From assembly GCA_964387275.1 (NCBI GenBank), contig CAYLVW010000002.1, positions 63,286 to 127,285 on the forward strand: 64,000 bases of DNA. The letters run 5' to 3'. The notes beneath the pieces were generated by a model, which saw only the letters and a list, made by a program, of their open reading frames with translations, ran no database searches and had not been told where the DNA came from. The position numbers were made by a program, and so were the translations under genes. The DNA is from an uncultured Candidatus Saccharibacteria bacterium. GTDB lineage: Bacteria > Patescibacteriota > WWE3 > UBA101185 > UBA10185. This document shows, piece after piece, positions 8,244-53,248 of the stretch. The stretch's first letter is position 1. Every line of letters begins with the position of its first letter.

Positions 8244-8361
8244 TATTATGAGACATACTAAAGATGCATTTAATATAATTTTCTTGAATTTTTCAATAGA
8301 GTCTATCTTTCTATCAAATTCTTGTATAAACTCCAGATATTTTTTTTTTTATTTTTTGTTT

Positions 8362-18698: not shown

Positions 18699-18726
18699 AA
18701 CTGGTTCTCGCGATATAATATCATGT

Positions 18727-36359: not shown

Positions 36360-36389
36360 TTGACTCAAAATACAAAATAACTCTATAAT
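36360..36389 (+). promoter_or_regulatory. Sigma70-like promoter TTGACT-18-TATAAT
   Basis: aaTTGACTcaaaatacaaaataactcTATAATtaatcactgcctATG. Confidence 0.5.
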
Positions 36390-36401
36390 TAATCACTGCC
36401 T

Positions 36402-36671
36402 ATGGATATTCAACTAGTACTAATAGTAATACTTGTTATTCTAACAATTAACCTAGTAATAGTCGGTTTCTATGTATTTTTAATACTTAGGGATCTCAGA
36501 GAAACTATTAAAAAAACAAACTCTGTATTAGATGATGCAAAAATAATAACCAAAACAGTTTCAAACCCACTTGGCTCTATTACAACTCTAGCAACATACC
36601 TAATTAAATCCTATAAATCTACCAAAACTGTAAATTCTTTGGTTGATTTCAAAGGAAGAAAGGGTGAATAA
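36402..36671 (+). CDS. Small N-terminal-TM protein
   Basis: ORF that directly follows the promoter. Confidence 0.4.
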   Translation: MDIQLVLIVILVILTINLVIVGFYVFLILRDLRETIKKTNSVLDDAKIITKTVSNPLGSITTLATYLIKSYKSTKTVNSLVDFKGRKGE

Positions 36672-36673: not shown

Positions 36674-37111
36674 ATGTGTGAAAAATGTGATAATAGTGGA
36701 TCATTTGTAACAGGTGCTGTTCTTGGAAGTGTGCTTGGATTTGCACTTGGGATCTTACTAGCCCCAGATTCGGGAACCAACACCAGGAAAAAGTTAAAAG
36801 ACACAAGTCAAAAGTATATAGAAGATGGAAAAGAAAAAGTCCAAAAAATAAGAGAATCAGCAGAACCCTATCTTGAAAACTTAGAAGAAAAATTAGAAGA
36901 AGTAAAAGACAAGGTTGAGCCGTATGTTGTAGATTTCCAAGAAAAAGTAGTACCAGCGTTGCAGGAGTTAGAAGAAAAAGCTAGAAACATGGCAGATCCT
37001 ATAGGTACAGAGATTGCTGAGAAAATCCAAGATCTAACTGGAGCCTTTGAGGATAAACCGGAAAAGCCAAGAAAAGCAGTAAAAAAGAAGTTATTCAACG
37101 GAATAAAGTGA
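36674..37111 (+). CDS. YtxH-like (DUF948) stress-associated protein
   Basis: GAVLGSVLGFALGILLAPDSGTNTRKKL followed by a charged helical tail. Confidence 0.55.
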   Translation: MCEKCDNSGSFVTGAVLGSVLGFALGILLAPDSGTNTRKKLKDTSQKYIEDGKEKVQKIRESAEPYLENLEEKLEEVKDKVEPYVVDFQEKVVPALQELEEKARNMADPIGTEIAEKIQDLTGAFEDKPEKPRKAVKKKLFNGIK

Positions 37112-37126: not shown

Positions 37127-37579
37127 ATGGTATTAGACTCAAAGCAGACAAGTGCTCCCACACAAAATGATCAGGCTGTAAACTCAGGGGTAACCCAGGC
37201 ACCGTCGCCAAATAACTTACCTACAAACCCAGCTACCGCAACCAGAAATACTATCAATTCTTTGTATGGTGGGTATGTGGAACAGGAATCACTACAACAA
37301 GCAACTGACCTAGAGAATATATCAATAGTCCCAGAAATAGTAAAAAACCCCGAAACTAATATACAAATAGAACCGACTATTCAACAAGAACCAAAAAAAT
37401 CCCCCACCACGCCAGAGGTGCAAATAGGTCAAAATGAAAAAGTCCCTAATGTAGAGGATCATTCAACTCACAAAGTGCAGCAGCACAGTGTAAATGCAAA
37501 AGCAGATGCGGTCACAAGCTTTGCAGACAAGGACGAAGAGGAATTTATTACAGGAATAGTACAACACCATGCAAACTAA
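37127..37579 (+). CDS. Hypothetical low-complexity protein (Gln/Pro/Thr-rich)
   Basis: ORF that overlaps the next gene's start by 11 nt. Confidence 0.35.
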   Translation: MVLDSKQTSAPTQNDQAVNSGVTQAPSPNNLPTNPATATRNTINSLYGGYVEQESLQQATDLENISIVPEIVKNPETNIQIEPTIQQEPKKSPTTPEVQIGQNEKVPNVEDHSTHKVQQHSVNAKADAVTSFADKDEEEFITGIVQHHAN

Positions 37580-39977
37580 TGACGTAGGATACATTGTTTT
37601 TTGGATAGTACTGTATCTAACACTTCTTTTCACCGTAATATTTAGTATTGTCTATCTCATATCCAGCTGGTGGCAAAAGCAAATGGATAAAAAGTACGGA
37701 TATGATTTTACGTTTCTTCAAGTTAAAATGCCTCCTTTAAATGAAATAGAAATCAAAAGTGCCGAACAATTCTTTGCAAGTCTTTCAGGATTTAGACGTT
37801 CATTTTGGGACTTTTTGCTAAAGGGAGAGTATAGGATCTCTTTTGAAATTGTATCTAAGGTAACTGGTATAGGGTTTTATGTTGTAGTGCCTGACGAAAT
37901 TGTCACTCTGGTAGAAAAACAAATTAATGGTGCGTACCCTGAAGCAGAAATAGATATTGTAGATCCAAATGAAATATGGGATAGAGGGACATATACCTCA
38001 GTGGCAGAACTTAAACTTGCGGGAGCCTCTTACTACCCAATAAAAAACTACGAAGATCTAAAAAGTGATGCTCTTAGCGCAATAACATCTACAATGAGCA
38101 AGTTACAAGATAATGAGGTCTTAGCAGTCCAGTATGTAATACAATCTGCAGGAGAATCATGGAAAAGAGAGGGCGAGAGGTTCGTGTCTGATGTAAAAAA
38201 CAAAGGAGCAAATCCAGAAAAGAAAACCAATATAGATACGTCATTTCTTGAAGGAGTAGAGAAAAAAATTGTTAAACCAGGTTTCTATGTCTCAATAAGA
38301 GTAATATCTATTGCAGACAGTAAAGTTGCGGCAGAGACACACATTAGAAATATTGTGTCCTCATTTGATCAATTTACAGATTTTAAATACAACAAGTTCA
38401 AACGTACTTGGCACTTTTCATCAAAAAAACTTGTAGATAATTTTATACACAGAAGAATATCTAATTTTGAAATAACAATTCCCATATTTGAAGTCAATCT
38501 TTTCAGATCTTCTTCTATTCTAAATATCGCAGAATTAGCAACAATATTTCACTTCCCTAACAAAGAGATTAAAACACCTAATATAATTTGGTTGCACTCA
38601 AGAAAATCTCAAGCACCAACTAATCTACCAGATGAAGGGCTTTATCTGGGTAAAAGTATATTCAGAGGGGTAAATAAAAAAGTTTTCATGGCTCCTAAGG
38701 ATAGAACAAGACACTTCTATATAATAGGCCAAACGGGTACAGGTAAATCCGAGTTTATGAAGTCTTTAGCATTACAAGATATCGCAAATGGTGAAGGACT
38801 AGCTTTTATCGATCCACATGGAAGTGACATAGACGATATCCTGTCTAAGATACCAGATCATAGAAAAGATGACGTAATACTGTTCGATTTATCAGATACA
38901 GAAAGACCCTTAGGGTTGAATCTACTGGAAGCAGAAAACGAAGAACAAAAACATATGATTATAAACGCGTTCATTGCACTTCTCTACAAACTTTATGACC
39001 CAAATCACCAAGGTATTATGGGACCTTTGCTTGAAAGAGCAATTAGAAATGTTATGTTAACAGCAATGGAAGACCCAAATGCAACTATGGTAGATGTAAT
39101 GAGACTTTTAATAGACCCAAAATATGTACAGAAGTTCATCCCCCTAATTAAGGATCCTATGGTTAAAAAATACTGGACCGATGAAGTTGCTAAAACCTCC
39201 GAAAACAGAAAAGGAGAAACAATGGGTTATTTTGTTGCTAAATTTGATAGGTTTGTAACGGACAAAACAATGAGAAATATTTTAGGACAACCAAAGTCGT
39301 CTTTCAGATTCTCGGACATAATGGCTCAGAAAAAAATTCTGCTTGTAGACCTATCAAAAGGTAAAATTGGTGAAGAAAACTCAAACTTCATTGGCTTATT
39401 ACTTGTTCCAAGAATACTAGCAACAGCATTAGCAAGAGCAAAATTCTTAGGAAAAGAGGATTTCCCAGATTTCTTCTTGTATGTAGATGAGTTTCAAAAC
39501 TTCGCAACACCTGATTTTGCAGTTATTCTATCCGAAGCAAGAAAGTACAAACTCAATCTTGTAGTGGCACATCAATTTATCTCACAATTGTCAGATGAAA
39601 TAAAAACAGCTGTCTTTGGTAACGTAGGTACAATGACAGTTTTTAGAATTGGTGTTGATGATGCCGAGTATCTTGAATCTCAATTTGAGCCCACTTTCAC
39701 AAAAACTGACCTAGCTAATAATCCAAACGGAGCAGCTTATGTAAAACTCCTTGTTAATGGGCATCCTACCCCACCTTTTTCAATGTCAGTAGATTGGGAC
39801 ATGATTACAAAAACACAAAAAAGCAGTGAAATGACAAACTACATAAGAGAAATGTCCCGAACAAAGTATGGAACACCTGTAGCAGAAGTTGAAGAGTATA
39901 TTAACAGAAGGGCGGGTCTTTATGATAAAGAAACCACACCAGAAGCACCGGCAAAATTGCCCAAACTTCCTTTCTAA
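37569..39977 (+). CDS. Membrane-anchored VirD4/TraG/TraD-type coupling-protein-like ATPase with a roughly 350-aa N-terminal extension
   Basis: N-terminal TM. Walker A is FYIIGQTGTGKSEF...AFIDPHGSD, which resembles TrwB (GATGTGKS...VDPNGD). The TraG-D_C-like region is FFLYVDEFQNF...KLNLVVAHQFISQL...AVFGNVGT. Confidence 0.55.
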   Translation: MQTNDVGYIVFWIVLYLTLLFTVIFSIVYLISSWWQKQMDKKYGYDFTFLQVKMPPLNEIEIKSAEQFFASLSGFRRSFWDFLLKGEYRISFEIVSKVTGIGFYVVVPDEIVTLVEKQINGAYPEAEIDIVDPNEIWDRGTYTSVAELKLAGASYYPIKNYEDLKSDALSAITSTMSKLQDNEVLAVQYVIQSAGESWKREGERFVSDVKNKGANPEKKTNIDTSFLEGVEKKIVKPGFYVSIRVISIADSKVAAETHIRNIVSSFDQFTDFKYNKFKRTWHFSSKKLVDNFIHRRISNFEITIPIFEVNLFRSSSILNIAELATIFHFPNKEIKTPNIIWLHSRKSQAPTNLPDEGLYLGKSIFRGVNKKVFMAPKDRTRHFYIIGQTGTGKSEFMKSLALQDIANGEGLAFIDPHGSDIDDILSKIPDHRKDDVILFDLSDTERPLGLNLLEAENEEQKHMIINAFIALLYKLYDPNHQGIMGPLLERAIRNVMLTAMEDPNATMVDVMRLLIDPKYVQKFIPLIKDPMVKKYWTDEVAKTSENRKGETMGYFVAKFDRFVTDKTMRNILGQPKSSFRFSDIMAQKKILLVDLSKGKIGEENSNFIGLLLVPRILATALARAKFLGKEDFPDFFLYVDEFQNFATPDFAVILSEARKYKLNLVVAHQFISQLSDEIKTAVFGNVGTMTVFRIGVDDAEYLESQFEPTFTKTDLANNPNGAAYVKLLVNGHPTPPFSMSVDWDMITKTQKSSEMTNYIREMSRTKYGTPVAEVEEYINRRAGLYDKETTPEAPAKLPKLPF

Positions 39978-39980
39978 TAT

Positions 39981-41738
39981 ATGAGTAAAAAAAATAAACT
40001 ATTTGAAGTAACAGAAGGTACAACAAGCGCAGAAGTAAGAGAACGTACTACGTTACTTGAAACGTCTGAAGACGAAATAAAATATGAACCCAACGCTATA
40101 GCAGAAAGAATATTAGAACGCATAGAAAAAATAAAAACAGGCAATACAGCCTTGGACAAAGCACTCCAAGATGCGGCTGATAAATTGGACGCACATGTAC
40201 ACGGACTAAATAGGTATAGCGAAGGAAGTGAAAAAAGTAGAGATGCGTACCATGAGCTTGAGAAGGATAACCCAGAAAAACTCCAAGAGGTATTTGGAAC
40301 CTACAAAACAATGGTAACAGACCACTTACTAATTGTAGAAAAGCTGTTAGATCAAACAGAAACAAATCCCCAGGGAGCCGCACTAGCAGTAGAACTTATA
40401 ACTGCTTCCACTGAAAACAGAAGAGGAAAAGAAGAGGAAACAAGAAAAAGGTTAAGAGAGTTTGGCATAAGCCAAGGGTTACCTCAAGGCGGAGAAGAGC
40501 AAGTAGTCGAACTACTTAATAAAATATCAGACGGTAGAATTGAATCCTTTGCAGACTATCTTGAGACAAGTGGCTTTGATTCTATTACAGTGGAAAACTC
40601 AGCAAACACCCATAGGGAAAACCTAGGAAAAATTATTAGTCTATCGGAGCGATTTGTAGAACCAAAGGATTATGATGATATATTTGCAACAACCACAAAA
40701 GTAAAAACTAAAGTTAAGGTAGAAAAAACATCCACCGAAGCCCACACAGATGAAACACTGAATAATTTAACAGTTGAACAAATACGTGAACGTATTGCAA
40801 AGCAATGGGATACAGAAAACCAAGACGGCAGTAACCTAATAGACACAACAAGTGGACCAAAACTAGCAGAGCGAACATTTCTCGGGGGAGAAAAGCTAAG
40901 GAAACCACGACAGTTTGCACAAGTTTTTGAAAGGTATATCACTACAAAAGATAAGGATGATATAACCAGATACGATAGAGTTGATGTACCTGTAATAACC
41001 TTGTACGCCGAAAGACAATTAAGTGATTTCACCAAATCAGAAAAAATCTACTCAAATAGAAAAGACCCCGTTGTAAGGATCCCTGTTCTTAATTTTGATC
41101 CAAAAGATTTTGATGAAATAGCCTTTATGAATGAGATGTTAAAAATGGCTCGAAATAACCCTGATGGCAGCTTCGATGTATTTGTAGCAAATGATAGTGG
41201 TAAAGCTGAAACATTTAGAGTGAATGCAGAAACGTATAACGCAATGAGGTATGTGGTACAACGATCAGTGGAATCCCATGCAAAAAAGGGCATAACTTAT
41301 AATCCAGAAGAGATACTTAAAAAGGGTTTAAAAAAGCTAGGACCAAATGAAACGACAACTGAAGAAGAAATAGAGATTGAAACAGAAACAATTACTACAG
41401 AAAGTCAAAACCCTAACGAATGGGTAAATCACAAGCGAGCTCTAGCTAGAATGAAAAGTTTAAGGTCTATTGCAGGCAAAAAATTAGATTTTACGGAAGA
41501 AGAAATGGATCAAACCGGAGAGTCTCTTACCAATTTGGAAAGGATATATACTGAATTTACATCACACATAGGAAGAGTGGAATCGTACTACTATATAGCC
41601 CAACAAAGATTAAAAACTCTTAGTGGAGTTTCTAAAGGACATCCTAGATACGAAGAAGGCTTGGAGATCTACTTACAAAACTATGTGTTGGAACTTGGAG
41701 AAATGTCCATAACATTAAAAAATGCTACAACAACTTGA
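39981..41738 (+). CDS. Hypothetical acidic cytoplasmic protein (585 aa)
   Basis: Start is 4 nt after the upstream stop. No recognisable domain. Confidence 0.4.
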   Translation: MSKKNKLFEVTEGTTSAEVRERTTLLETSEDEIKYEPNAIAERILERIEKIKTGNTALDKALQDAADKLDAHVHGLNRYSEGSEKSRDAYHELEKDNPEKLQEVFGTYKTMVTDHLLIVEKLLDQTETNPQGAALAVELITASTENRRGKEEETRKRLREFGISQGLPQGGEEQVVELLNKISDGRIESFADYLETSGFDSITVENSANTHRENLGKIISLSERFVEPKDYDDIFATTTKVKTKVKVEKTSTEAHTDETLNNLTVEQIRERIAKQWDTENQDGSNLIDTTSGPKLAERTFLGGEKLRKPRQFAQVFERYITTKDKDDITRYDRVDVPVITLYAERQLSDFTKSEKIYSNRKDPVVRIPVLNFDPKDFDEIAFMNEMLKMARNNPDGSFDVFVANDSGKAETFRVNAETYNAMRYVVQRSVESHAKKGITYNPEEILKKGLKKLGPNETTTEEEIEIETETITTESQNPNEWVNHKRALARMKSLRSIAGKKLDFTEEEMDQTGESLTNLERIYTEFTSHIGRVESYYYIAQQRLKTLSGVSKGHPRYEEGLEIYLQNYVLELGEMSITLKNATTT

Positions 41739-42280
41739 TGAATCAAATGACGCTTCTAGAATCCTATGAAGACCTACCAGAAGCTGAAAAGAAAGCGATT
41801 AGAAATCAAATAGTAACATTGCTAAGTTCAATAGATGGAATGGTCCTTGAGCAAAATCCAAACTGGAGAGGTGGTCTTAGGGAAATAAACTCTGTGGATG
41901 CAACTAACCCAAACCCAATAGAAACTAAAGACCCTGTATCACCGGCACCTATATCAGAAGACAGAGCCAAAAATACAGAAGACACAGCAACTGTACAAAC
42001 CCCACAATCTGAGACCGAGGCAGATACTATCCCGCTACTACAAGAGGCAGAAGAAACAACTACTATAGTAGAACCTATAGGTCAAGAAGTGGAAAGAGCA
42101 CAACAACCTGTGTTAGAAACAGTAAGCACTATAACAGAAAAAGGGCCAGTAACTGAAAACGAGCAGGAAGCACAAGAAACGACGCCAAAATCACGAAAAA
42201 CTACTAAAAGAAAAGGTAAGAATATCAGAAAAGAAGCAGACAGACAAAGACGGCAGGCGCGACGGGAAGAAGCCTATTAG
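41735..42280 (+). CDS. Hypothetical acidic protein with an Arg/Lys-rich C-terminal tail
   Basis: Overlaps the upstream stop by 4 nt. It ends KSRKTTKRKGKNIRKEADRQRRQARREEAY. Confidence 0.4.
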   Translation: MMNQMTLLESYEDLPEAEKKAIRNQIVTLLSSIDGMVLEQNPNWRGGLREINSVDATNPNPIETKDPVSPAPISEDRAKNTEDTATVQTPQSETEADTIPLLQEAEETTTIVEPIGQEVERAQQPVLETVSTITEKGPVTENEQEAQETTPKSRKTTKRKGKNIRKEADRQRRQARREEAY

Positions 42281-42311
42281 TTGATTAATCCATAATGCTA
42301 TAATCAATTTA

Positions 42312-43502
42312 ATGCTCAATCTACCTTTTTTTAAGACAACTTCCAAAAACAAATTCCTAACAATAGACTTCGGATCAGATAGCGTTAAATGCTTGGCTTT
42401 TTACAATGACGGAGAGATAAATAAAATTATTGGGTTTGGTAAACAACAAGTGGAAAAAGGACATATCCGATCAGGAGCTGTAGTTGATATAGAAGGCGTA
42501 GATCTAGTACTAAAAGAAGCTATTGCTCAAGCAACCCAAAATTCAGGAGAATCTATTGACCAAGCCATTATAGGTCTAAATGGAACATTTATCATCAACC
42601 AATTAGTTACAGCCAGGTTACTTAGAGGTAAAAGTTCTGATATATCAAATAATGAAATGGACGATATATATGAAAGAACGGTTAAATCATCAACAGAACA
42701 AGCTTACAGTGAACTAGTAAAGACCACTGGTAGCAATGATATGGATTTGGAACTCGTAACAGCGGAGAAAGCGTATGTGAGAGTTGATGATAGACCTATC
42801 CACAAAGATACAAAACCTGCAGGAAACAAAGTTGAAATGGCTGTATTCTCATCTTTTGCACCAAGCTATCAAATGAAAAATTTATCAAAGTTATTAAAAC
42901 GCAGTGGTTTAAAAATAATAGGTGTGGTACCGGAAATGTATTCGTTGGTTAAGTCTATCAACCATAAAAAGATTGGATCAAATGATTACCTAATAATAAA
43001 CATTGGTAGCGATAAAACTGAGATTGGCATAGTCTTTGGGGGAAATTTAATTTCCACCAAATCACTTCCTATTGGTGGATATCACTTTACTTATCAAATG
43101 AGTCATGTGTTAGGTTTATCAATAAAAGAAGCTGAAAATTTGAAACGTTCATATTCGCAAGGAAAGCTGCCTAATAGTGAAAGTCTAACAGTTCAAAACT
43201 GTTTTAGTGAAATACTGGAAACCTGGTTAAGTGGTATTGAATTAACTTTTGGAGAATTTACAGGAGTAAAAACTTTCTCATCTAAAATATACTTAACCGG
43301 TGGGGGAATTCATCTTCCTGACATATATGATTACCTAACTAGTGAACCTTGGACCAAATCGATACCATTTAAAGACACGCCAACATTCGAAAAAGTGACA
43401 GCCAAAGATCTACCAGGCATTCAAGATGAAACACAGATGGTAAGTGGGCCTGAGTGGGTAATGCCTGTTTCACTAAGTAATATATTTCATAATCTTGTAT
43501 GA
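42312..43502 (+). CDS. Actin-like ATPase of the FtsA/PilM family
   Basis: Phosphate-1 motif FLTIDFGSDSVKCLAF, and KIYLTGGGIHLPDI near the C-terminus. Confidence 0.5.
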   Translation: MLNLPFFKTTSKNKFLTIDFGSDSVKCLAFYNDGEINKIIGFGKQQVEKGHIRSGAVVDIEGVDLVLKEAIAQATQNSGESIDQAIIGLNGTFIINQLVTARLLRGKSSDISNNEMDDIYERTVKSSTEQAYSELVKTTGSNDMDLELVTAEKAYVRVDDRPIHKDTKPAGNKVEMAVFSSFAPSYQMKNLSKLLKRSGLKIIGVVPEMYSLVKSINHKKIGSNDYLIINIGSDKTEIGIVFGGNLISTKSLPIGGYHFTYQMSHVLGLSIKEAENLKRSYSQGKLPNSESLTVQNCFSEILETWLSGIELTFGEFTGVKTFSSKIYLTGGGIHLPDIYDYLTSEPWTKSIPFKDTPTFEKVTAKDLPGIQDETQMVSGPEWVMPVSLSNIFHNLV

Positions 43503-45016
43503 CTAAAATAGAACTAGAAATTTTTGACGACCTAATAGTTACACTAAACAAAATAAGAGCGGTTAATGATTCTGGGATTGAGCTCCACATACCAGAAGGC
43601 TCTCCTATTTTGGACAACATTGTTTCATTAAAACTTCTAAAAAAAGAGGCAGAAAACATGCAAAAAATCCTGCACTTTGTTACAAAAGATGTAGCAGGTC
43701 TTGAACTTTTATCGCAACTACAAGAAGAACAAACAGATACTTTAGTGGAGCAAGAAGTAGATAAAATATCAGAAGACGGCGCAATAGGAACAATCACAAA
43801 AAAACCTGCGTTTAGATTCCCTACATTAAAACTCCCAAAACTGCACGCAGGACTCCCAATAATTGCATTAATAATTGTAGTTGTTGGGGGAATCTTACTT
43901 GCAGGTGGTTGGTATTTGTATAACTTGCCGAAGGCTGAAGTCACAATTGTGGTAAGCTCAGAATCACTTTCCAAAGGATTACCGGTTAAAGTGAAAGACG
44001 GGGTTTCTACTTCAGCAGAACAAAAAACTCTAAGAGGGTACATATTTAAATCAACCCTAACAGAAACAAAAGAAGCGGATACTACAGGAGAGAAAATTGT
44101 AGGAAAAAGCGCCAAAGGTAAAATAAAGATCTTTAATAAAACTACTGAAGAAAAAACTTTTAAAAAAGGACAAACTGTAACATACGAAGATGACGAAGAA
44201 AACGATTTTACATTTACGACTGATGAAGAAATAACAGTACCTGCAAGAGTAGATAATATTGATGGGACTATTACCTCCGGGGAAAAGGAGGTTTCTGTAA
44301 CCGCATCAAATATAGGTGAGAACTATAATATTAAGTCTGGGAAAACACTTAGCGTTAAGGATCAGAAAAGCGCAGATTTTACCGCAATTTCTGTTGAAAA
44401 CTTCACTGGAGGAAAGAGTGAAAAAGTTAAAGTGGTCGCTCAATCCGATCTAACTAAATTATCAAGCGATGTAACAACCGCATTAAAACAAAAAGCTCTT
44501 GAGGATTTGAAATTCAAATTAGGTCTTACCCAAAAAATAATTGAGGGAACCATACAAACTAAGGTTGTTGAAGAAGCATTCAATCATAAAGTAAACGAAG
44601 AATCTGAAAAAATTATACTTACACAAAATGTCGAAGCCAGCGCCTTGGTATATTCTTCGGTAGATATGGATGAACTGCTAGATAATCTATTGGAGAGCTT
44701 TGTACCAAGTGGGTATGTGCTATCTTCAAAAGATAAGGTTGTTAATATTGAGGTTTTAGGAAACTCAGCAACAACAGTGTTAAAAGAAAACGAAGCTGAC
44801 GTACAACTTACTATTAAAACTTATATAGTCGCTGATATTACAGAGGAAGGCATTAAAGATGCGATAAAGGGAAAGGGGGTAGAAGAGGCTAAAAAAGTGC
44901 TAGACGAAGTTAAAAACGTTAACAGTTACGCTTTAAATCTAAACCCTTCTATCCCACTACTAAGTTTTATACCTAAAGACACCAATAGAATAACAGTTGA
45001 TATCAAAAGGGAGTGA
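43499..45016 (+). CDS. Hypothetical bitopic membrane protein (TM near residue 115, large Lys/Thr-rich ectodomain)
   Basis: Contains LPIIALIIVVVGGILLAGGWYLY. Overlaps the upstream stop by 4 nt. Confidence 0.4.
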   Translation: MTKIELEIFDDLIVTLNKIRAVNDSGIELHIPEGSPILDNIVSLKLLKKEAENMQKILHFVTKDVAGLELLSQLQEEQTDTLVEQEVDKISEDGAIGTITKKPAFRFPTLKLPKLHAGLPIIALIIVVVGGILLAGGWYLYNLPKAEVTIVVSSESLSKGLPVKVKDGVSTSAEQKTLRGYIFKSTLTETKEADTTGEKIVGKSAKGKIKIFNKTTEEKTFKKGQTVTYEDDEENDFTFTTDEEITVPARVDNIDGTITSGEKEVSVTASNIGENYNIKSGKTLSVKDQKSADFTAISVENFTGGKSEKVKVVAQSDLTKLSSDVTTALKQKALEDLKFKLGLTQKIIEGTIQTKVVEEAFNHKVNEESEKIILTQNVEASALVYSSVDMDELLDNLLESFVPSGYVLSSKDKVVNIEVLGNSATTVLKENEADVQLTIKTYIVADITEEGIKDAIKGKGVEEAKKVLDEVKNVNSYALNLNPSIPLLSFIPKDTNRITVDIKRE

Positions 45017-45471
45017 TAATGCCCAAACTAACACAGAAACATCGAGACAGACTCAAAAAAGAGGATAAGGAAATACTACTGGGGATAGACTACGGCAATA
45101 AAAATCTCGGAATTGCGTTCGGCAGAGATGGACTTGTTAAACCACTTAAAGTCCTAAAAGCTGAAGACATGCCCGCCCTACTTCATGAAATCACAAAATT
45201 TATCTTTGAAAATAAGGTAACAAAAATTGTTGTAGGACTACCCCTAACATATGAGGGCAAAGACACTCAAAAATCCAAAGAAATAAGAAACTTTGCTAAA
45301 CAAATTAAAGTATATCTTAAAAAACCTGTTGTTTTTGTAAATGAATACAGAAGTACCGAGGAAATACTTGAAGGTAGCTCTTTTGGAATACCACATAGAG
45401 GTAAGGATCCTGTAGATCACCTATCAGCAGCTGTGATCCTTAGACGGTTTTATGAAGAAGGTATAAAGTAA
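45013..45471 (+). CDS. ruvX: RuvX/YqgF Holliday-junction-resolvase-like pre-16S rRNA nuclease
   Basis: ILLGIDYGNKNLGIAFG...KIVVGLPLTYEGKDT...NEYRSTEE. Confidence 0.8.
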   Translation: MIMPKLTQKHRDRLKKEDKEILLGIDYGNKNLGIAFGRDGLVKPLKVLKAEDMPALLHEITKFIFENKVTKIVVGLPLTYEGKDTQKSKEIRNFAKQIKVYLKKPVVFVNEYRSTEEILEGSSFGIPHRGKDPVDHLSAAVILRRFYEEGIK

Positions 45472-45573: not shown

Positions 45574-45975
45574 TGGTGGAGATGGCGAGAATCGAACTCG
45601 CGTCTTGAAAACCCAAAAACAAAAAACTACAAGTTTAGCTGTACTTAAGTGTCAGAAAATCATGGAGTACAACAACCTAAAATCTTCCTAAGACCTTCTT
45701 CTGTGAAAGGTGGAATTACATCCTAAAAATCAAAGTGGGTCAAACTCTAATTTCGCATCCGAAAATTATAAAGTTGTGGTCTTACATCTTTCGGAGGAAG
45801 TAAGGCAACTTAACCTAAGCTCTTTGAGCTGTGGTTAGGCTAAAGCACCGGCGTAAGCTGGTACTAAAGCTTCTGATTCAACATCAGCATTTATTTTTTG
45901 CAAATTTTTTGAAGCAGTTTTGCAACTTCTACTTGTTTCTGAGATTGGGAAATCCAATCAAAGCCGATCATCCCC
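45574..45975 (-). ncRNA. ssrA: tmRNA (SsrA)
   Basis: The 5' end GGGGATGATCGGCTTTGATTGGATTTCCC resembles E. coli GGGGCUGAUUCUGGAUUCGACGGGAUUUGCG. The 3' end GCGAGTTCGATTCTCGCCATCTCCACCA has a tRNA-like T-arm and CCA. The internal tag ORF GCT GAT GTT GAA TCA GAA GCT TTA GTA CCA GCT TAC GCC GGT GCT TTA GCC TAA translates to ADVESEALVPAYAGALA*. Confidence 0.85.
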
Positions 45976-46057: not shown

Positions 46058-46510
46058 CTAATGCCAGATACTTTTTAACTCAACCTTTAGATCCTTGTCC
46101 ATCTGTTTCACCTTTTCTATATCTTTCTTCTCATATTTCTTAAGACCTCTTACTATACCAAGTTCCAATTTTATCAGATTGTGTGACAATATCAACGCAA
46201 GGGGCACCGCAGACTTCCCTTTCTGAGATAGTTCTTTTATTAAGATACTTACTTCTTTGGAAGTCAGTAGAAGTGAGCGTGTTTTTCTACTGTCTGCTTC
46301 ATTATGGGGTTGTGATTGATTTGAGTACCTACCTACGTACATATTCAATATAACAGGCTTCCCTGAAAGTACTTGTACAAAACTGCCATCAAAGTTAACT
46401 TTTCCTTCTCTTATTGCCTTAACCTCATAACCTTTAAGAACGAGTCCTGCTGTTAACGTCTCGAGTATTTCGTAATCGTGGAAAGCTTTTCTATTCTTAG
46501 CTAGTAACAT
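46058..46510 (-). CDS. smpB: SsrA-binding protein SmpB
   Basis: NRKAFHDYEILETLTAGLVLKGYEVKAIREG compares with NRKARHDYEILETYEAGIVL in the SmpB consensus. Confidence 0.9.
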   Translation of the reverse strand: MLLAKNRKAFHDYEILETLTAGLVLKGYEVKAIREGKVNFDGSFVQVLSGKPVILNMYVGRYSNQSQPHNEADSRKTRSLLLTSKEVSILIKELSQKGKSAVPLALILSHNLIKLELGIVRGLKKYEKKDIEKVKQMDKDLKVELKSIWH

Positions 46511-46554: not shown

Positions 46555-47967
46555 TTATCTTCTACCGCCCTTTTTTTCACCCATTATCATTGCTTCAACT
46601 TTTGAAGGAGCAGAATTCGCAAAATAGAAACCCATCATTAAAATAGCAGGTAACATTACGAGAGTTACCATACCCCCAGCTGTATAACCAAATATAGCAA
46701 CACCAAAGAAGTTATCTACCCCAGTCATTACCTGAACAAAAATATTCATCGCAATCAAAAACGTCATTGCCAAGACCCCAGTCATAGCAGGTAAGCTTAG
46801 CATGTAAACTGCCATCTGCTTAAACCAATCAATGGTCATATTATCATTTCCCGGTATAGCACCAATAACAAATATTATAGGGGAGGTTATTATAGCCACT
46901 ATCATTTTGACGTAAGTAAAACCAATTTTTACAGCAATCCAAAGCATCCCAACCAAAGCCATTACTGCAAGAATTATTGGAACAAGAAAGATAAAACCCA
47001 CAGTCATTAAACCTAAAGAAGCCCCAGTTAAAAAGAAATAGAATATAGGTAAAGGCCCTAGATGAGAAAATAGGTCTGCTGCCTGTTGTAAGGAAGGTGT
47101 GTCACCTCCAGTCACAGCCGCTGTCATGATAATAGGAACTATACTTACCATTAAGGATCTACCGATAGTGGTCATAGTGGCCCCAATAGGATAACTGAAA
47201 GTTATTAGTATAATGGCTATAATAATTCTTGGTATTGCAAATTGAACTGTTACGATTGTTTGCTGATCTATCTTTCTCCTATTCATTATCATAAAACCAA
47301 GCACTAACATCACTATCGCTAATAAGCCGTAAGAAATGTTTCTAAACAACTTCCATGTACCTAAAACCATAGAAAGGGCTACTTGGTTACCCGGATCTCC
47401 GTAGGTTTGAGCTAAGGCTTTACCAATAAAAGGCACGTGGGCAACGGTGTCGTTAGCGTAGTAAGCTAGATTTACAGGAACCAAATCTGTGTGGGTAGTG
47501 CTGTTCACAAAACCTACCAACCCAGCAAAACTACCACCAACAGTGGATTTTGGATCCACTAAAGCGTAGTTATCAACAAACGCTGATGATATGTAACCAG
47601 GCTTTAAAGAATTTGCCAAATTCTGACAAAACTCTGCATCATATGTATCTGCTGTAGAGGGATCTAAACTGACTAAAGAGGGATCTACATCGTGAATAGC
47701 TTGAGCGCACCCACAAATTTGATCTATATTACCACCAAAAAAAGCTGCGCTAGGAATCTCTTGTATAAGAGTGGTTGCAATATTCATGGTAGTTCGGGTT
47801 ATATCTAAGTTTCTGAATATATCTACAACATTTATGTAGGTGTTCTCTCTGCTGTTGCAAGTAGCAACAACCTGAGCAGAAACACTTGGAGTTAAGTACA
47901 AAGCGATGGAAGTGAAAAGCAGTGTGAATACAGAGTATTTAATTAGACTTATTCTCTCAGTTAACAT
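46555..47967 (-). CDS. VirB6/TrbL-like polytopic membrane protein (signal peptide, roughly 200-aa ectodomain, at least 5 TM)
   Basis: Assigned on topology only. It has a signal peptide MLTERISLIKYSVFTLLFTSIALYLTPSVSAQ and a Cys-containing ectodomain, followed by multiple TM helices. Confidence 0.4.
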   Translation of the reverse strand: MLTERISLIKYSVFTLLFTSIALYLTPSVSAQVVATCNSRENTYINVVDIFRNLDITRTTMNIATTLIQEIPSAAFFGGNIDQICGCAQAIHDVDPSLVSLDPSTADTYDAEFCQNLANSLKPGYISSAFVDNYALVDPKSTVGGSFAGLVGFVNSTTHTDLVPVNLAYYANDTVAHVPFIGKALAQTYGDPGNQVALSMVLGTWKLFRNISYGLLAIVMLVLGFMIMNRRKIDQQTIVTVQFAIPRIIIAIILITFSYPIGATMTTIGRSLMVSIVPIIMTAAVTGGDTPSLQQAADLFSHLGPLPIFYFFLTGASLGLMTVGFIFLVPIILAVMALVGMLWIAVKIGFTYVKMIVAIITSPIIFVIGAIPGNDNMTIDWFKQMAVYMLSLPAMTGVLAMTFLIAMNIFVQVMTGVDNFFGVAIFGYTAGGMVTLVMLPAILMMGFYFANSAPSKVEAMIMGEKKGGRR

Positions 47968-48034
47968 TCTGAGGAAATTTTACAATAAAAACAAAATATC
48001 AACAACAACCTACTTATATACTATAATTCAGGGT

Positions 48035-51000
48035 ATGGCACGTAATCCATTCTATACAGGATATATACCTGGTGATGAAAACGATCCACTATATAAAATA
48101 AGGCCTAAGAGAGTTAAGCCCGGTACTCCTGTAAATTTTGGGTTTAATTTTGAAACACAATTAGTGCAGGAGCTTGAACATGAAGCAGACATTCCAGCCA
48201 AAGTAAAAGAATACATTATAGACGCGGAGGTAGACGAAATTAAGTCAGCATTTAAGGTGTCGGCTGGCATAGGTAAGAAAAGCTCGCTATCAAACCAAAA
48301 ACTAAACGATATTCAAAGAACTGGCGAAGAACCAGAACTACCCGGAGCAATGGGTCTTAGTGTAAATCTAATTGATCTTGTAACTAATCCGCAAGAAACT
48401 GTAGCAAAAGTTCTAACCGAGGGCTGGAAAAACATCACCAGCTGGGAGGAATTTGATCAAAACCTATCGCACAGAGCATTTGCAAGAATTTTAATGGATA
48501 AAGATGCTCCAATTGATGAAGAGAACGGGCCAAATACAGGTAAAGAACTTGAGCCAAGGCTACCTCTACAAAAACTTGCAGAAGATACATATACAAGAGG
48601 AACAATAAATCTCTCTGGTATAGAACTTCCCGATTATTCAGACCAAGGACAAAAAAACCCACTACAAATGTGGAGTGATAATAAATCTGGCTTTAGAAGA
48701 GGTAGAGGTAGATTCTTTGAAATCAAATATAAAAATTATGATGGAGACGAAGTAACAGAGAAAGTTGGTATGGAAACAATGTATAAAGAAGTTGCGGATA
48801 AAGCTTCTAAATTTGTGATGACCTCAAAATCCGCTTCAAGTAGGGATAGTGCTTATGAAGACTACCTAGCAACTTTACAAAAGGTACTCACCAAAGAGCT
48901 TGATCAATGGGACGGAACTCTAACAGATGACATGAAGGAAAGGTTAAAAAAGGCTGCAGCCATAAATCCTGCCCTTGCAATACCTGAAGATAAGGTTGTA
49001 GAGGTATTAAAACAAGCACGAAGTAATTTTGTGAATAAAGGGGGCTTAATAAACGCTGTTAGGGATTTGGGTGGAGATGAAGATAGTGGTCTGGGAGGAC
49101 TATCATCCCAGCTAAGTAGGTTTGTAGTCGAAGGACGCACAGACAATACAGCCTCCGAGATGGAAAAAACCATAGCAGGAATAGGTAGTGCAATAAAAAC
49201 CAGTGAAAAAAAGATAGATACACTAAGAAACGCATTATCAGGAGAAGCACTAAGCACTTTCAATAAACAAATCAGACCGTATGAAGAGTTGTTAACACAA
49301 ATTAAAGGTACAGTTTTTGATGTTAAAGAAGGTGAAACTCTAGCAGTATTTAATGCAACTACAGCAAGCCCAAATGTAAGAAGATTATTAAATAATATCA
49401 AGTCTGGCGTAGCAGGCCTTGGGGATAAAGCAGATGCTACATCAATATTAACTACCATAAATTTTGTAACTAGTGGTGGATTAGACCCCACTAAAAGCCC
49501 TCTTACAAACGGTACAGTTGTAAATCAAAGTCTTTTATTTAAGTTGCAAAGAGATCTTATTGAAGGTGGGTTTGATAGAAGTATCGGCGCCAGAGAAATG
49601 GTACACCTTGATGACATTGGAGTATTAACAGACATAATGGGTGTTGAAGATGCAAACGCTTTGAAAGTCCTCACTAAAAGACTCCAAAATATGAGGGAGT
49701 GGGACGCGTTTAGAGAAGCACTACAAAACTTTGATGGAGGAAAGCTTTGGAGAAACTATTACTATGTAAAAAGAATTAGAGACAACCTTACAATTCTCAC
49801 ACCTTCTTATTGGGTTAACCACGCACTAAAACGGGTTCAGTACTTTGGATTTAAGATTGATGAGAAAAACTTGGCTAAAAGTCCTAAATTAATCCAATAT
49901 CTAATAACAGGGTCTCCTCTGAGTGCTTTATTTGTAAACAGATTTTCATTAAATATTACTTTTGTAGGTGCTGGTAAAACTAAAGTTAAGCTTGAGGGTG
50001 GAAAACACTTTAATGGAGTAACAAGCCTATACAGCTTATACAGCTCAGAAAAATTAAGCAAAGCAGAACTTAAAAGTTTCCTAAGTTTTATAGCCTTTGA
50101 TGCAAAAGCACTCTACAAAGATCCCGCAAAGAAAATAATGAATGCTGATTGGGTTGAGTGGCATAAGAAACTAACAGATGTTTTTAAAGATAAAGATAAA
50201 GCCCAAAAGTTTTTAGAAGATATACAAGGCTTCACAACTTGGTTACAAACTAAAGGAAAATCAATTGTTGGTGAAAAAGTGCTTAGAGACGCCGAAAATC
50301 TATTTAAACTTCTAGGAGCTTTGGTAAATCACGAAAGCAAGGCAGGCACTTCAAGCATCACAACGACTTTCCTGGGTGTAATAGATAAGGTAGCCATTCA
50401 ATTTAATAAAGTTCAGTCCTATTTGTTAAATAAATTTGGTAAGTGGCTTGCACCAATCAGCTACCTAAAACAAGCTATTGCAGAGGGTGTGACGGATGCA
50501 TTAATGGGCATACTTGCTGCGATCACAGGGGGTCTATCTGCCACTGCAACTCCTATAATAAAGTGGGTCCTACAATGGACCGTCGTTAAAACCCTAGATT
50601 TCTTCGAAAAAATAATACAAGGCATATCAAAAGGAGATTTATCCTTCATATTTAAGGGATACGAAAAAACCCTAACCAGAATATTCAAATATGTAATGTA
50701 CGCTTCTATTGTCCCGTTCACATGTATGCTTCTGGTTTTGTTTGTTTTTAATGTGTTGCTTTCTTCGATAAACCCGGTTAATGTGGCTAGAAACACCGTA
50801 AGTTCTGCGTTTTCATCTGTAACAGGTAGTTTTTTTACTGGAGCTGTAGGGGCGATTGTAGGAGCACTCTTTGATGGAGGAAGTGATGGGCATTATCTAT
50901 CTCAAAGAGATGCAGCATGGGCTACAGTACTTATAGGTGCCTCAGGACTTACTTTATATGAAGTTGGTTGTTTAATTGTTAGTGTTGCTATGGTGTATAG

Positions 51001-51322
51001 CTATTACGGTATAAATATCTCTCCAGTGGAAATAGCCCTAAATGCAGCCAATTTCGCTGGAAATAGTGCTTTACTATATATGCCTTCTATCGGTGGGCAT
51101 ACTTGGGCAACCGCTACATCAATTGCAGGTGAGATTGCAGCAGGAAACCCTGTAATTCTAGGGATAAACACAGGCCCTTGGGGTACTCATTTTGTAGTAG
51201 CTATAGGCATGGACTCAAATGGATGTCCTATAATACATGACCCCTGGATTGGCCCTGATAGAAATTACTGCACTGAGTACGGCAGTATGAGCAAAATATT
51301 TACTACAAGAGTACTAAGATAA
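48035..51322 (+). CDS. Giant (about 1096 aa) envelope protein: soluble N-region, multi-TM region, and a C-terminal C39-like (Peptidase_C39_2) papain-fold cysteine peptidase domain
   Basis: The C-terminal YEVGCLIVSVAMVYSYYGINISPVEIA...GTHFVVAIGMDSNGCPIIHDPW matches the C39_2 pattern (nGCeitSLAMvLnYYG...HavVvtGyd...vnDP). The start is trimmed to MARNPFYTG (ATG at 48035), with TATAAT 8 nt upstream. Confidence 0.5.
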   Translation: MARNPFYTGYIPGDENDPLYKIRPKRVKPGTPVNFGFNFETQLVQELEHEADIPAKVKEYIIDAEVDEIKSAFKVSAGIGKKSSLSNQKLNDIQRTGEEPELPGAMGLSVNLIDLVTNPQETVAKVLTEGWKNITSWEEFDQNLSHRAFARILMDKDAPIDEENGPNTGKELEPRLPLQKLAEDTYTRGTINLSGIELPDYSDQGQKNPLQMWSDNKSGFRRGRGRFFEIKYKNYDGDEVTEKVGMETMYKEVADKASKFVMTSKSASSRDSAYEDYLATLQKVLTKELDQWDGTLTDDMKERLKKAAAINPALAIPEDKVVEVLKQARSNFVNKGGLINAVRDLGGDEDSGLGGLSSQLSRFVVEGRTDNTASEMEKTIAGIGSAIKTSEKKIDTLRNALSGEALSTFNKQIRPYEELLTQIKGTVFDVKEGETLAVFNATTASPNVRRLLNNIKSGVAGLGDKADATSILTTINFVTSGGLDPTKSPLTNGTVVNQSLLFKLQRDLIEGGFDRSIGAREMVHLDDIGVLTDIMGVEDANALKVLTKRLQNMREWDAFREALQNFDGGKLWRNYYYVKRIRDNLTILTPSYWVNHALKRVQYFGFKIDEKNLAKSPKLIQYLITGSPLSALFVNRFSLNITFVGAGKTKVKLEGGKHFNGVTSLYSLYSSEKLSKAELKSFLSFIAFDAKALYKDPAKKIMNADWVEWHKKLTDVFKDKDKAQKFLEDIQGFTTWLQTKGKSIVGEKVLRDAENLFKLLGALVNHESKAGTSSITTTFLGVIDKVAIQFNKVQSYLLNKFGKWLAPISYLKQAIAEGVTDALMGILAAITGGLSATATPIIKWVLQWTVVKTLDFFEKIIQGISKGDLSFIFKGYEKTLTRIFKYVMYASIVPFTCMLLVLFVFNVLLSSINPVNVARNTVSSAFSSVTGSFFTGAVGAIVGALFDGGSDGHYLSQRDAAWATVLIGASGLTLYEVGCLIVSVAMVYSYYGINISPVEIALNAANFAGNSALLYMPSIGGHTWATATSIAGEIAAGNPVILGINTGPWGTHFVVAIGMDSNGCPIIHDPWIGPDRNYCTEYGSMSKIFTTRVLR

Positions 51323-51443: not shown

Positions 51444-51920
51444 TTATAAAGTGATTCCAAAATTACTCAACAAATTAACCAGTGAGGCATAAAAAGTGTT
51501 AACTATACCTTGGGGGCTGGATGCATTTATACCGACCATGCCAGCAGCAATACCAACAATAGAGAAACTTCCCAACACAGCCAAAAAACCCAAGAAAGCA
51601 TAAAATATTGTATCTTTTGCTCCTTGAAATCCTTTTGGGTCACCTAAGGACTGAGACATTTTAATACCACCATATGCTGCCATAATTGCGAAAACAAGGC
51701 TTGAAGAATATAAAGCTATATTTACTACCCTAAGCAAAGGACAAATTATTGCGGCAATACTTGGGGGGTCAGCATCTCCACTACCCGAACCCCAATCGAC
51801 GATAGAAGGACATGAATATGGTGTGGGGCTCATCGGAACCGCATAAACATTAGGGGTCAAAAAAAAGAGTGAAACTAATAAAGTTAAACTTATTATAATT
51901 GGGTTAAAACGTTTTCTCAC
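51444..51920 (-). CDS. VirB2/TrbC-like pilin paralog 4 (signal peptide plus TM hairpin)
   Basis: Signal peptide, a Cys-containing spacer, TM1, the loop SQSLGDPKGFQGAKDT, then TM2. Confidence 0.45.
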   Translation of the reverse strand: MRKRFNPIIISLTLLVSLFFLTPNVYAVPMSPTPYSCPSIVDWGSGSGDADPPSIAAIICPLLRVVNIALYSSSLVFAIMAAYGGIKMSQSLGDPKGFQGAKDTIFYAFLGFLAVLGSFSIVGIAAGMVGINASSPQGIVNTFYASLVNLLSNFGITL

Positions 51921-51922
51921 TT

Positions 51923-52243
51923 TTAGAACTCTGTATTTAAATTAGTAATATTTGGGTCAGTAACACCAAGAGCTTGGGTTATGGTTAATCTTGCCCCAAT
52001 AACCACAAAAGAAATTAAAATAGCAAAAGCACCATAAACAACAGCGTTCCAAGCCTGCTGTACCCCTTTTGGATCCCCTTTACTCATAATATATAAGTAA
52101 CAGGCCCATGCCAAGTTAACAATCGCAGCGCCAAACCCTACTCCCGCTAGGATATTTAGACCTACAATCAAAAAGTCCCTAATAGAATCAGGGGCTGATG
52201 CTGGATAAAATTGAGTTGCTAAGTTGTCTATTACGTTGAACAT
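51923..52243 (-). CDS. VirB2/TrbC-like pilin paralog 3
   Basis: TM1 is LIVGLNILAGVGFGAAIVNLAWACYLYIM, the loop is SKGDPKGVQQAWN, and TM2 is AVVYGAFAILISFVVIGA. Confidence 0.45.
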   Translation of the reverse strand: MFNVIDNLATQFYPASAPDSIRDFLIVGLNILAGVGFGAAIVNLAWACYLYIMSKGDPKGVQQAWNAVVYGAFAILISFVVIGARLTITQALGVTDPNITNLNTEF

Positions 52244-52270
52244 TGTTTCGTGTTTCTACCGTCCCGATTT

Positions 52271-52295
52271 CTGGGCGGGCCGAAGGCCCGCCCAG
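52271..52295 (-). terminator. GC-rich hairpin (GGCCGAAGGCC core) between pilin paralogs 2 and 3, a putative intra-operon attenuator
   Basis: CTGGGCGGGCC-GAA-GGCCCGCCCAG lies between the 52310 stop and the 52243 start. Confidence 0.45.
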
Positions 52296-52309
52296 CTCCA
52301 AGAACAAAA

Positions 52310-52645: not shown

Positions 52646-52674
52646 AATTGTTTAAAGTTGTTACACCTCCTCTT

Positions 52675-53190: not shown

Positions 53191-53248
53191 AAGTATGACC
53201 TGCCAAAATTATCAAGCACCCCAAAATAAACGTCAAGGTTTATTGATA

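Follow-up and report, generated by a model that had tools for sequence, protein, structure and literature searches.

An anchored ATPase of the VirB4/VirD4/HerA clade in a WWE3 genome, most likely an orphan coupling or assembly ATPase, within a juxtaposition of three evolutionary units

Does a compact run of genes around a putative translocation ATPase encode one machine, or does it bring together genes with separate histories? The question is raised by a stretch of 64,000 nucleotides (nt) of contig CAYLVW010000002.1 (assembly GCA_964387275.1, positions 63,286-127,285 of the forward strand), hereafter the window, which is assigned by its best matches to candidate division WWE3, which falls within the candidate phyla radiation (CPR, or Patescibacteria). 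An earlier note on this DNA had interpreted seven forward-strand open reading frames (ORFs) as one translationally coupled operon forming an undescribed translocation module: two acidic proteins, an FtsA/PilM-like protein, a large bitopic protein and RuvX were among its parts, around a VirD4-type coupling-protein ATPase. All seven ORFs are present where that note placed them. The locus is better understood, with moderate confidence, as a juxtaposition of three evolutionary units and not as one machine: an ATPase with a small upstream protein, a hypervariable gene, and an envelope and housekeeping module. In this interpretation the ATPase of the first unit is most likely an orphan coupling or assembly ATPase of a type IV-like apparatus.

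The packing of the seven genes is real. Their junctions were verified at 37579/37569 (an overlap of 11 nt), 39977/39981, 41738/41735, 43502/43499 and 45016/45013. Tight junctions are the norm across the window, however: in 24 of the 44 adjacent same-strand gene pairs no more than 4 nt part the two genes, the gaps have a median of 3 nt, and the coding density is approximately 0.95, so the spacing of the seven genes is no tighter than would be expected here by chance and does not mark them as one coupled operon. The co-directional run to which they belong has twelve genes, not seven (HrcA-GrpE-DnaK-g89-YtxH-g150-ATPase-...-RuvX). What was proposed as a module of seven genes is three units that have come to lie together by chance in a compact genome.

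The ATPase (37569-39977, +) is a membrane-anchored protein of 802 amino acids (aa) in the VirB4/VirD4/HerA clade, comprising DUF8128 and DUF87 domains with a near-threshold match to TraG-D_C; within the FtsK-HerA superfamily it would belong to the VirB4/VirD4 branch. Its N-terminal hydrophobic anchor (residues 5-35; 37581-37673, +) is modelled as a single long helix and is kept in nearly all of 78 homologues; because basic residues follow the anchor, the remainder of the protein is predicted to be cytoplasmic. Next come the DUF8128 domain (residues ~46-345; 37704-38603, +), with a predicted fold like that of the VirB4 N-terminal domain, and a RecA-like motor (residues ~358-740; 38640-39788, +) with a helical insertion at residues ~458-572, which contains the Walker A sequence GQTGTGKS, the Walker B sequence DEFQN, R658-K659 and Q669. 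The two motifs on which the earlier note had relied are present and conserved: among 90 homologues, no variation occurs in the Walker A residues G387-Q-T-G-x-G-K393, T391 and S394 are kept in at least 90%, and D640-E-F-Q-N644, R658-K659 and Q669 are likewise invariant. Because the catalytic residues are invariant in these 90 sequences, the 802-aa protein is probably an active ATPase.

The AlphaFold2 model of the ATPase (pLDDT 87.5, pTM 0.77) consists of an N-terminal helix (residues 3-42), an alpha/beta domain (46-345) and the RecA-like motor with its helical insertion. When the N-domain was searched against the Protein Data Bank (PDB) with Foldseek, the first 13 matches were all TrwK/VirB4 chains (E-values 8e-7 to 1e-4), one of them a chain of 457 residues. 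The match is assigned to the N-terminal domain of VirB4 because VirB4 C-domain structures are absent from the N-domain searches, and the DUF8128 domain would accordingly share the fold of that domain. The roughly 350-aa region that had been described as a domain of unknown fold is classifiable as Pfam PF26449 (DUF8128), precomputed matches to which exist for P0001, a protein of identical sequence, and for each of the 120 homologues listed; a literature search for "DUF8128" returned no papers. Structural comparison gave figures of 29.1 for the VirB4 C-domain, 27.4 for the DptH C-domain and 27.1 for TrwB (369 residues aligned), and lower figures for HerA (24.3), DotL (23.1), Cag-beta (21.3) and FtsK (16.1). 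On the predicted structure, the ATPase follows the two-domain plan of VirB4 (N-domain fold and RecA-like C-domain), and the VirB4-like N-domain takes the position of the HAS-barrel of HerA. The architecture does not appear to be that of VirD4, the VirB4-type N-domain standing between anchor and motor; the protein looks instead like an unusual hybrid, in which an anchor and an N-domain of VirB4 type precede a motor that leans in sequence toward the coupling proteins.

That leaning is derived from profile comparisons. Of the Pfam models, only DUF87, which represents the central domain of HerA, exceeds its cut-off (27.8 bits versus 23.2). TraG-D_C scores 21.9 bits (cut-off 22), TrwB_AAD_bind 19.7 (cut-off 20.5), AAA_10 15.9 (cut-off 27.5) and FtsK_SpoIIIE (PF01580) 13.4 (cut-off 24), while PF02534, PF03135 and FtsK_gamma gave no match to the ATPase in the Pfam scan. 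Precomputed TraG-D_C matches are present in most homologues. The top NCBIfam matches, every one of them a coupling-protein family, are TraD, CD1115 VirD4-like and TrbC, at 34-45 bits versus cut-offs of 250-800. A profile of the 90 homologues, compared with PDB sequences, matched DotL (7e-7), TrwB (5e-5), HerA (0.05) and VirB4 (1.4), and no FtsK was matched among those sequences. The PHROG family phrog_5156, whose function is not annotated, covers residues 228-791 at 1.4e-90. These comparisons place the ATPase in the VirB4/VirD4/HerA clade with what appears to be a weak inclination toward coupling proteins, FtsK being clearly more distant.

Relatives of the ATPase were found in at least 593 species genomes of GTDB, from which 80 loci were retrieved (numbered with the prefix L); 78 loci could be compared for the upstream ORF. 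All 80 carry a full-length ATPase. Their labels are WWE3, Microgenomates orders, Dojkabacteria, unclassified Patescibacteria and some evidently mislabelled bins; many of the records L011-L032, L050 and L054 are titled Gammaproteobacteria, Pseudomonadales, Limisphaerales or Bathyarchaeia and look like such bins. One locus, L081 (JBDRAU010000068.1), contains two tandem copies of the ATPase family side by side (819 and 858 aa). Within these lineages the gene is chromosomal, apparently single-copy, off mobile elements, near-universal and syntenic.

When every ORF in the retrieved loci was clustered as an analysis of neighbours, only one near-constant neighbour of the ATPase was found, a small ORF directly upstream. 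In the window this is g150 (37127-37579, +), a small, disordered, acidic low-complexity protein whose stop overlaps the ATPase start by the 11 nt given above. A small same-strand low-complexity ORF occupies this position in 60 of the 78 loci, window included, with a gap of 30 nt or less in 42. The protein evolves fast (g150 is 78.7% identical to the copy in L100, versus 98.5% for the ATPase) and had no family matches in Pfam, NCBIfam and PHROG scans. Its C-terminus in Microgenomates is an amphipathic helix, "SWRWLAEWCxRxLK", and in WWE3 the wholly unlike "EEEFITGIVxxH". Position and low-complexity character are maintained across classes (the window and L002-L081). The small protein and the ATPase are the only unit that persists across lineages.

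The second unit lies immediately behind the ATPase. What had been taken for two acidic proteins of 585 and 181 aa is one hypervariable gene of ~767 aa (39981-42280, +), split by a 1-nt deletion at ~41725. The gene order of L100 is the same and its 767-aa ORF is intact; in a DNA alignment to L100 the window is without one C (GCC to GC) at ~41725, and restoring the lost base gives "...TLKNAYNNLMNQM...", exactly the L100 sequence. The 181-aa ORF restarts at a TTG overlapping the stop of the 585-aa ORF (41717-41738). Because the identical 70-mer, deletion included, occurs in the separately assembled Logan contig L001, the deletion is probably real and not the artefact of one assembler. A programmed frameshift of -1 on the run of A (A AAA AAT) was also considered. 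It was rejected because both the best repair and the unbroken gene of L100 put the change in the GCC codon, and a plain deletion of 1 nt, located 3-4 nt downstream of the run, was preferred.

The gene has few relatives. Among 1.84 billion representatives, the 585-aa ORF finds only three clusters, namely its own, a 918-aa protein and a 1059-aa protein, and in the latter two the part that matches the 585-aa ORF is followed at once by a stretch that aligns with the start of the 181-aa ORF product; these two more distant relatives are single proteins. The gene or its fused 918/1059-aa relative occurs in four further loci: L001 (identical), L086 (416-3172), L099 (1869-5048) and L100. Elsewhere in WWE3 the slot after the ATPase is empty (L002 and L004), holds two opposite-strand genes (L102) or encodes an 882-aa protein with an acidic C-terminal end and a weak hhalign link to the 767-aa family (L103; probability 59.5%, E-value 9e-5). 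Searches with the 767-aa protein gave nothing above noise in Pfam and NCBIfam and no PHROG or PADLOC matches, no PDB sequence relative was found even with a four-sequence profile of the family, and the protein is unlike the products of the genes behind the ATPase homologues in a Bacillus plasmid and in phage SPO1. Its product has an acidic body, a disordered stretch rich in P, E and T, and an Arg/Lys-rich tail, and no signal peptide or transmembrane (TM) segment was seen in it by eye. The acidity and basic tail reported earlier are borne out, with isoelectric points of 5.16 and 4.75 for the two ORFs and 10.6 for the final 40 aa, and the 918-aa and 1059-aa versions likewise end in Arg-rich tails.

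The rate at which this gene changes sets it apart from its surroundings. Identity to L100 is 98.5% for the ATPase, 96.7% for the FtsA-like protein, 94% for RuvX, 90.3% for g505 and 84.2% for the 767-aa gene. To L086 and L099, the ATPase is 89-90% identical, the FtsA-like protein 82-84% and the 767-aa gene 27-28%; values for RuvX (85%) and g505 (74%) are to L086 only, since the L099 contig ends inside the FtsA-like gene. The 767-aa gene is a lineage-restricted, very fast-evolving, separate unit, and as such a candidate for strain-specific host interaction. A bolder and rather unlikely proposal is that the ATPase and the following gene are a coupling-protein/cargo pair, the 767-aa protein being a host-interaction effector recognised by the orphan coupling protein and exported via the pilin apparatus of the CPR cell. 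Substrates of VirB/D4 systems have positively charged C-terminal signals, to which the Arg/Lys-rich tail in three versions of the 767-aa family has been likened, the end of the 882-aa protein of L103, possibly a relative, being acidic instead. If the proposal were true, the low identity of the gene (27%) in strains that are 82-90% identical in the genes on either side would be the outcome of an arms race with the host, and VirB4 and VirD4 would be linked by an intermediate not recognised before, of which the VirB4-type N-domain is the mark.

The third unit consists of an FtsA/PilM-like actin-fold protein of 396 aa (42312-43502, +), the 505-aa bitopic protein g505 (43499-45016, +), in which a conserved N-domain of ~65 aa on the cytoplasmic side is joined through a linker and a single TM segment to an ectodomain of ~360 aa, and RuvX/YqgF (45013-45471, +). 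RuvX passes both of its profiles (PF03652, 88.6 bits versus 29.2; TIGR00250, 61.3 versus 43.25). Its overlap with g505 holds for a GTG start, but the gene call in L001 is 150 aa, two residues shorter, and fits an ATG 6 nt downstream. The 396-aa protein passes Pfam PilM_2 (46.3 bits versus 27) and passes neither TIGR01174 for FtsA (91.3 bits, cut-off 175.85) nor TIGR01175 for PilM (61.9 bits, cut-off 133). By Pfam, neither this protein nor its close family has the SHS2_FTSA insert (PF02491), which is present in distant matches to canonical FtsA proteins; the latter are only 21-25% identical to the 396-aa protein. The family consists of ~400-aa proteins, and its named members are all WWE3.

It is only in WWE3 that these three genes come after the ATPase. 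L002, L004, L086, L100 and L103 share the order ATPase ... FtsA-like - g505 - RuvX; in L099 the ATPase, a slot gene and the FtsA-like gene are followed by the contig end, and in L102 uncharacterised genes of 126 and 376 aa part the FtsA-like gene from RuvX. Elsewhere the module is found without the ATPase, as FtsA-like - g505-like - RuvX - YceG/MltG - MreB - MreC - PBP2 or as AlaRS - g505-like - sortase - RuvX - x - YceG, both with distant relatives of g505. RuvX itself is a housekeeping gene in the widely conserved alaS-ruvX-mltG arrangement. Because they occur in those contexts without the ATPase, the FtsA-like gene, g505 and RuvX form an independent envelope and housekeeping module. The expectation that the partner genes would be syntenic with the ATPase in related genomes has largely failed, the 767-aa gene being scarce and the other three being tied to the ATPase only in WWE3.

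Full-length relatives of the ATPase that include the N-domain, with 20-26% identity over 81-90% of the query, occur outside the CPR in the Bacillus phages G (gp156), SPO1 (gp27.4), CP-51 and JL and on plasmids of Bacillus, haloarchaea, Staphylococcus and Sulfolobus, and are annotated as DUF87, TraM-recognition or VirD4 proteins. Because such relatives occur in phages and plasmids, the architecture is not specific to the CPR; the Bacillus and SPO1 versions are without the TM helix. On B. subtilis plasmid CP120602.1 a 913-aa homologue lies upstream of conjugal-transfer, TcpD and TcpE genes. In SPO1, gp27.4 (906 aa) is followed with an 8-nt overlap by gp27.3, a Replic_Relax protein (PF13814; L097, 4818-8355), an arrangement that resembles a coupling protein paired with a relaxase, here in a lytic phage. 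The informative contexts of the relatives outside the CPR thus point to conjugation-type DNA transfer. Motor-only soluble relatives of 350-580 aa, without DUF8128 and with 32-40% identity to the motor, are encoded by most of the IMG/VR contigs L087-L095, the G+C content of which is 0.34-0.60.

Orphan coupling-protein homologues have already been reported in Patescibacteria, so the locus does not represent an undescribed module in that respect. Quinonero-Coronel et al. (2025; PMC12102498) counted 5,713 homologues of VirD4-type type IV coupling proteins (T4CPs) in 2,918 Patescibacteria genomes, of which only 148 are near virB4; there are approximately two per genome, chromosomal and without a relaxase, and the authors considered exaptation of these orphans possible. 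Their Table S3 includes Microgenomatia genomes in which one t4cp1 match is far from a cluster of VirB4 (PF19044), TrsD and a VirB2 array (PMC12102498). WWE3 and two GW2011 genomes among the loci examined here are not in the survey tables, and the Microgenomatia pattern fits the ATPase family. The ATPase is most likely the "orphan T4CP" (t4cp1 type) of that survey (PMC12102498).

A link to a type IV-like apparatus is suggested by the genes found beside the ATPase in some lineages and farther downstream in the window. Four divergent VirB2-type pilin genes (PF18895-like) of a type IV secretion system (T4SS) lie at 51444-53190 (-), two of them detected only with a hidden Markov model from related loci. 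A coiled-coil protein with a SpoIID domain (53123-55072, +) belongs to a block that is beside the ATPase in other lineages, and a three-gene block follows, encoding a bPH_2-like membrane protein (57169-57738, +), a 75-aa protein (57742-57969, +) and a 553-aa protein (57970-59631, +), which also adjoins the ATPase and SmpB in Dojkabacteria and Levybacteria loci. The Dojkabacteria-type loci L074, L077 and L078 share one co-directional order: 2-6 PF18895-type pilins - SpoIID - bPH_2 - small - large bitopic - SmpB - small - ATPase; the same block is cut at the SpoIID end in L076, and partial versions occur in L049 and L058. Four Levybacteria loci have the order small - ATPase - (x) - SpoIID - bPH - small - bitopic, with SmpB directly next in L009 and L027. 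In the window the pilin, SpoIID and bPH pieces are rearranged and located 7-20 kb downstream of the ATPase locus.

On the strength of these observations, the ATPase may be envisaged as a membrane-docked ring that would use ATP either to pass a macromolecular substrate (protein or DNA) to a type IV-like apparatus of VirB2 pilins or to help assemble that apparatus, with g150 perhaps acting as its adaptor or regulator. Of the earlier designation as a type IV coupling-protein ATPase, the membrane anchor, the T4SS-ATPase clade and the coupling-like sequence signals stand. Several points weigh against the interpretation as an orphan coupling or assembly ATPase, beginning with the curated coupling-protein profiles, all of which score below cut-off. 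The pilin/SpoIID block is within 10 kb of the ATPase in only ~10 of the 80 loci, and because the block includes SmpB, inherited gene order could explain the linkage of pilins and ATPase. Most Microgenomates neighbours of the ATPase are housekeeping genes: ribonucleotide reductase (RNR), NrdR, PduO-type adenosyltransferase, Xer and DivIC. VirB4, TrsD, VirB6-profile and relaxase genes were not found in the window, where the nearest T4SS components to the ATPase are the VirB2-type pilins, 11-13 kb off. According to Quinonero-Coronel et al., Microgenomatia pilin arrays sit with canonical VirB4/TrsD and not with the T4CP (PMC12102498, Table S3), and the t4cp homologue of S. epibionticum, which may or may not be of the DUF8128 type, is not essential for epibiotic growth (PMC12102498). 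Because WWE3 is absent from the survey dataset, identity with its t4cp1 matches is an inference only. If instead all seven genes made up a single module, dedicated to the translocation of DNA or protein, so far undescribed and centred on a coupling protein of VirD4 type, their common direction and tight packing, the recurrence of the order ATPase ... FtsA-like - g505 - RuvX within WWE3, and a slot behind the ATPase that often holds a large protein without a known family would be accounted for. Such a module is very unlikely, given that tight spacing is the genome norm, that no partner adjoins the ATPase in 77 other loci outside WWE3, that the FtsA-like, g505-like and RuvX genes occur together without the ATPase beside mltG, mreB, mreC, PBP2 or alaS, and that the supposed partners include a housekeeping gene, RuvX, and "acidic unknowns" that are one frameshifted gene.

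Other functions of the motor deserve consideration alongside the orphan coupling or assembly ATPase. Coupling proteins, which pump DNA, share their superfamily with FtsK, and the ATPase could conceivably be a chromosomal DNA translocase in division, an analogue or helper of FtsK at the septum acting with Xer and DivIC or the FtsA-like protein. An opposite-strand Xer-type recombinase (Phage_integrase and SAM_1) is encoded 1-3 genes downstream of the ATPase in 37 of 82 loci and is followed by DivIC in 28, in Microgenomates and Dojkabacteria; FtsA-like and RuvX are the next genes in WWE3; and the gene is chromosomal, apparently single-copy and off mobile elements. Nevertheless class II RNR, NrdR and PduO-type adenosyltransferase are kept beside the ATPase in 20-22 loci, nearly as often as Xer, and because these unrelated neighbours are conserved to such an extent, the Xer/DivIC linkage is read mainly as inherited gene order, which would suffice. 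No gamma domain was detected in the ATPase, Xer is on the opposite strand, and the WWE3 genome of L103 (GCA_002305115.1) encodes a canonical FtsK (FtsK_alpha, FtsK_SpoIIIE, FtsK_gamma) at 6051-8279, 4 kb upstream of its ATPase. Replacement of FtsK was downgraded as a candidate after this finding, a literature search for an FtsK or divisome inventory in the CPR yielded nothing usable, and a role in division is considered unlikely. Still less probable is that the ATPase powers a Ced- or ComB-like import of DNA to feed a nucleotide-auxotrophic CPR cell, with pili for contact. VirB2-type pilin arrays are nearby, and ComEC is dispensable in S. epibionticum, where T4SS may serve other uptake roles (2025 survey, PMC12102498). 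The NCBIfam CedB and CedD matches, however, are weak (21-22 bits, far under cut-offs of 600-700) and confined to the P-loop region, and a CedA-like channel gene was not identified. A defence or DNA-repair ATPase of the HerA/DptH type would agree with DUF87 as the sole Pfam match over cut-off, with a PADLOC mad8 match of 56.8 bits and with the soluble ATPase-only relatives (32-40% identity, nine loci) on IMG/VR contigs. This must be considered highly improbable when there are no NurA, Sir2, Dnd or MADS partners in the window or the loci examined, a VirB4-type N-domain replaces the HAS-barrel, profile searches prefer DotL and TrwB to HerA, and the gene is near-universal, syntenic and chromosomal, unlike those of defence islands.

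The remaining features of the locus flank the three units. On the 5' side, a promoter-like site (TTGACT-18-TATAAT, 36360-36389, +) matches the consensus at 11 of 12 positions upstream of g89; it is the sole strong site of the co-directional run and a possible start of the transcription unit, but it is a consensus match only, and the total count of promoter-like sites in the region is not above that of shuffled sequence. The small hydrophobic protein g89 (36402-36671, +) is 100% identical in L100, its position is occupied in L102 and L103 by genes of 91-92 aa, and it is part of a WWE3-conserved lead-in to the ATPase. Next is the YtxH-like g145 (36674-37111, +), which has a homologue upstream of the ATPase in L004 and whose counterparts by position in L102 and L103 carry PF12732 (YtxH). 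On the 3' side of the seven genes, the transfer-messenger RNA gene (ssrA) reported beside the cluster is real (45574-45975, -). It is followed by SmpB (46058-46510, -), which adjoins the ATPase block in nine other loci too. Between SmpB and the pilin array are a 470-aa multi-TM protein with no family match (46555-47967, -) and, beside it, a 1138-aa protein with a C-terminal Peptidase_C39_2 (papain-like) domain (47906-51322, +). Of the pilin/VirB6-like cluster said to lie across ssrA, the pilins are real, but the VirB6-like label of the 470-aa protein is matched by no profile. Elsewhere the window encodes an AddA-like fusion of a UvrD helicase with a PD-(D/E)XK nuclease (9830-12697) and a second helicase of the UvrD/PcrA type (16698-18872).

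The significance of the locus is twofold. CPR bacteria depend on host cells, and in the one species tested epibiotic growth requires the type IV-like apparatus; an orphan T4CP with a VirB4-type N-domain, its small partner and the block of pilin, SpoIID and membrane proteins are testable candidates for energising secretion or uptake, and the architecture of the ATPase bears on the divergence of VirB4 and VirD4. Compact CPR operons also mix unrelated genes, and gene spacing there is no proof of functional coupling.

Among known systems, the Bacillus phage and plasmid proteins and the haloarchaeal proteins related to the ATPase are on mobile elements or phages, unlike the chromosomal ATPase of the CPR. 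With HerA the ATPase shares a DUF87 motor that passes the Pfam cut-off, and neither the HAS-barrel N-domain nor, in the window or the loci examined, the NurA and Sir2 neighbours were found. With FtsK/SpoIIIE it shares the superfamily, the membrane anchor and, in many lineages, an Xer recombinase neighbour, but it is without alpha or gamma domains, and one WWE3 genome encodes a canonical FtsK in addition to it. The FtsA/PilM-like protein and g505 resemble PilM-PilN and FtsA pairs in that an actin-fold gene is translationally coupled to a bitopic protein with a conserved cytoplasmic N-terminus; unlike PilN, g505 is far larger and has no PilN/PilO context, and elsewhere the relatives of the 396-aa and 505-aa proteins neighbour ruvX, mltG and mreBC. 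VirB4 (TrwK of R388 and the Thermoanaerobacter pseudethanolicus protein) is like the ATPase in its two domains and length of ~800 aa, but the ATPase has no significant VirB4 profile match (AAA_10 and PDB VirB4, as above) and has its own TM helix, and related CPR genomes hold a separate canonical VirB4 with TrsD. Canonical VirD4 has two TM helices with the motor directly after them. The ATPase differs in having one hydrophobic segment and a VirB4-type domain of ~300 aa before the motor, and also in being chromosomal and vertically conserved with no relaxase or VirB4 gene nearby. This lack is typical of the T4CP homologues of Patescibacteria (PMC12102498), whose architecture, N-domain fold, partner genes and gene neighbourhoods are not described in that paper. 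The ATPase resembles the coupling proteins (VirD4, TrwB, TraD, DotL/IcmO, Cag-beta) in its N-terminal anchor and RecA-like motor, in the helical insertion between Walker A and Walker B, in a segment of the "RK...Q..SQL" type (LSEARKYKLNLVVAHQFISQL), and in that they are its best sequence-profile matches.

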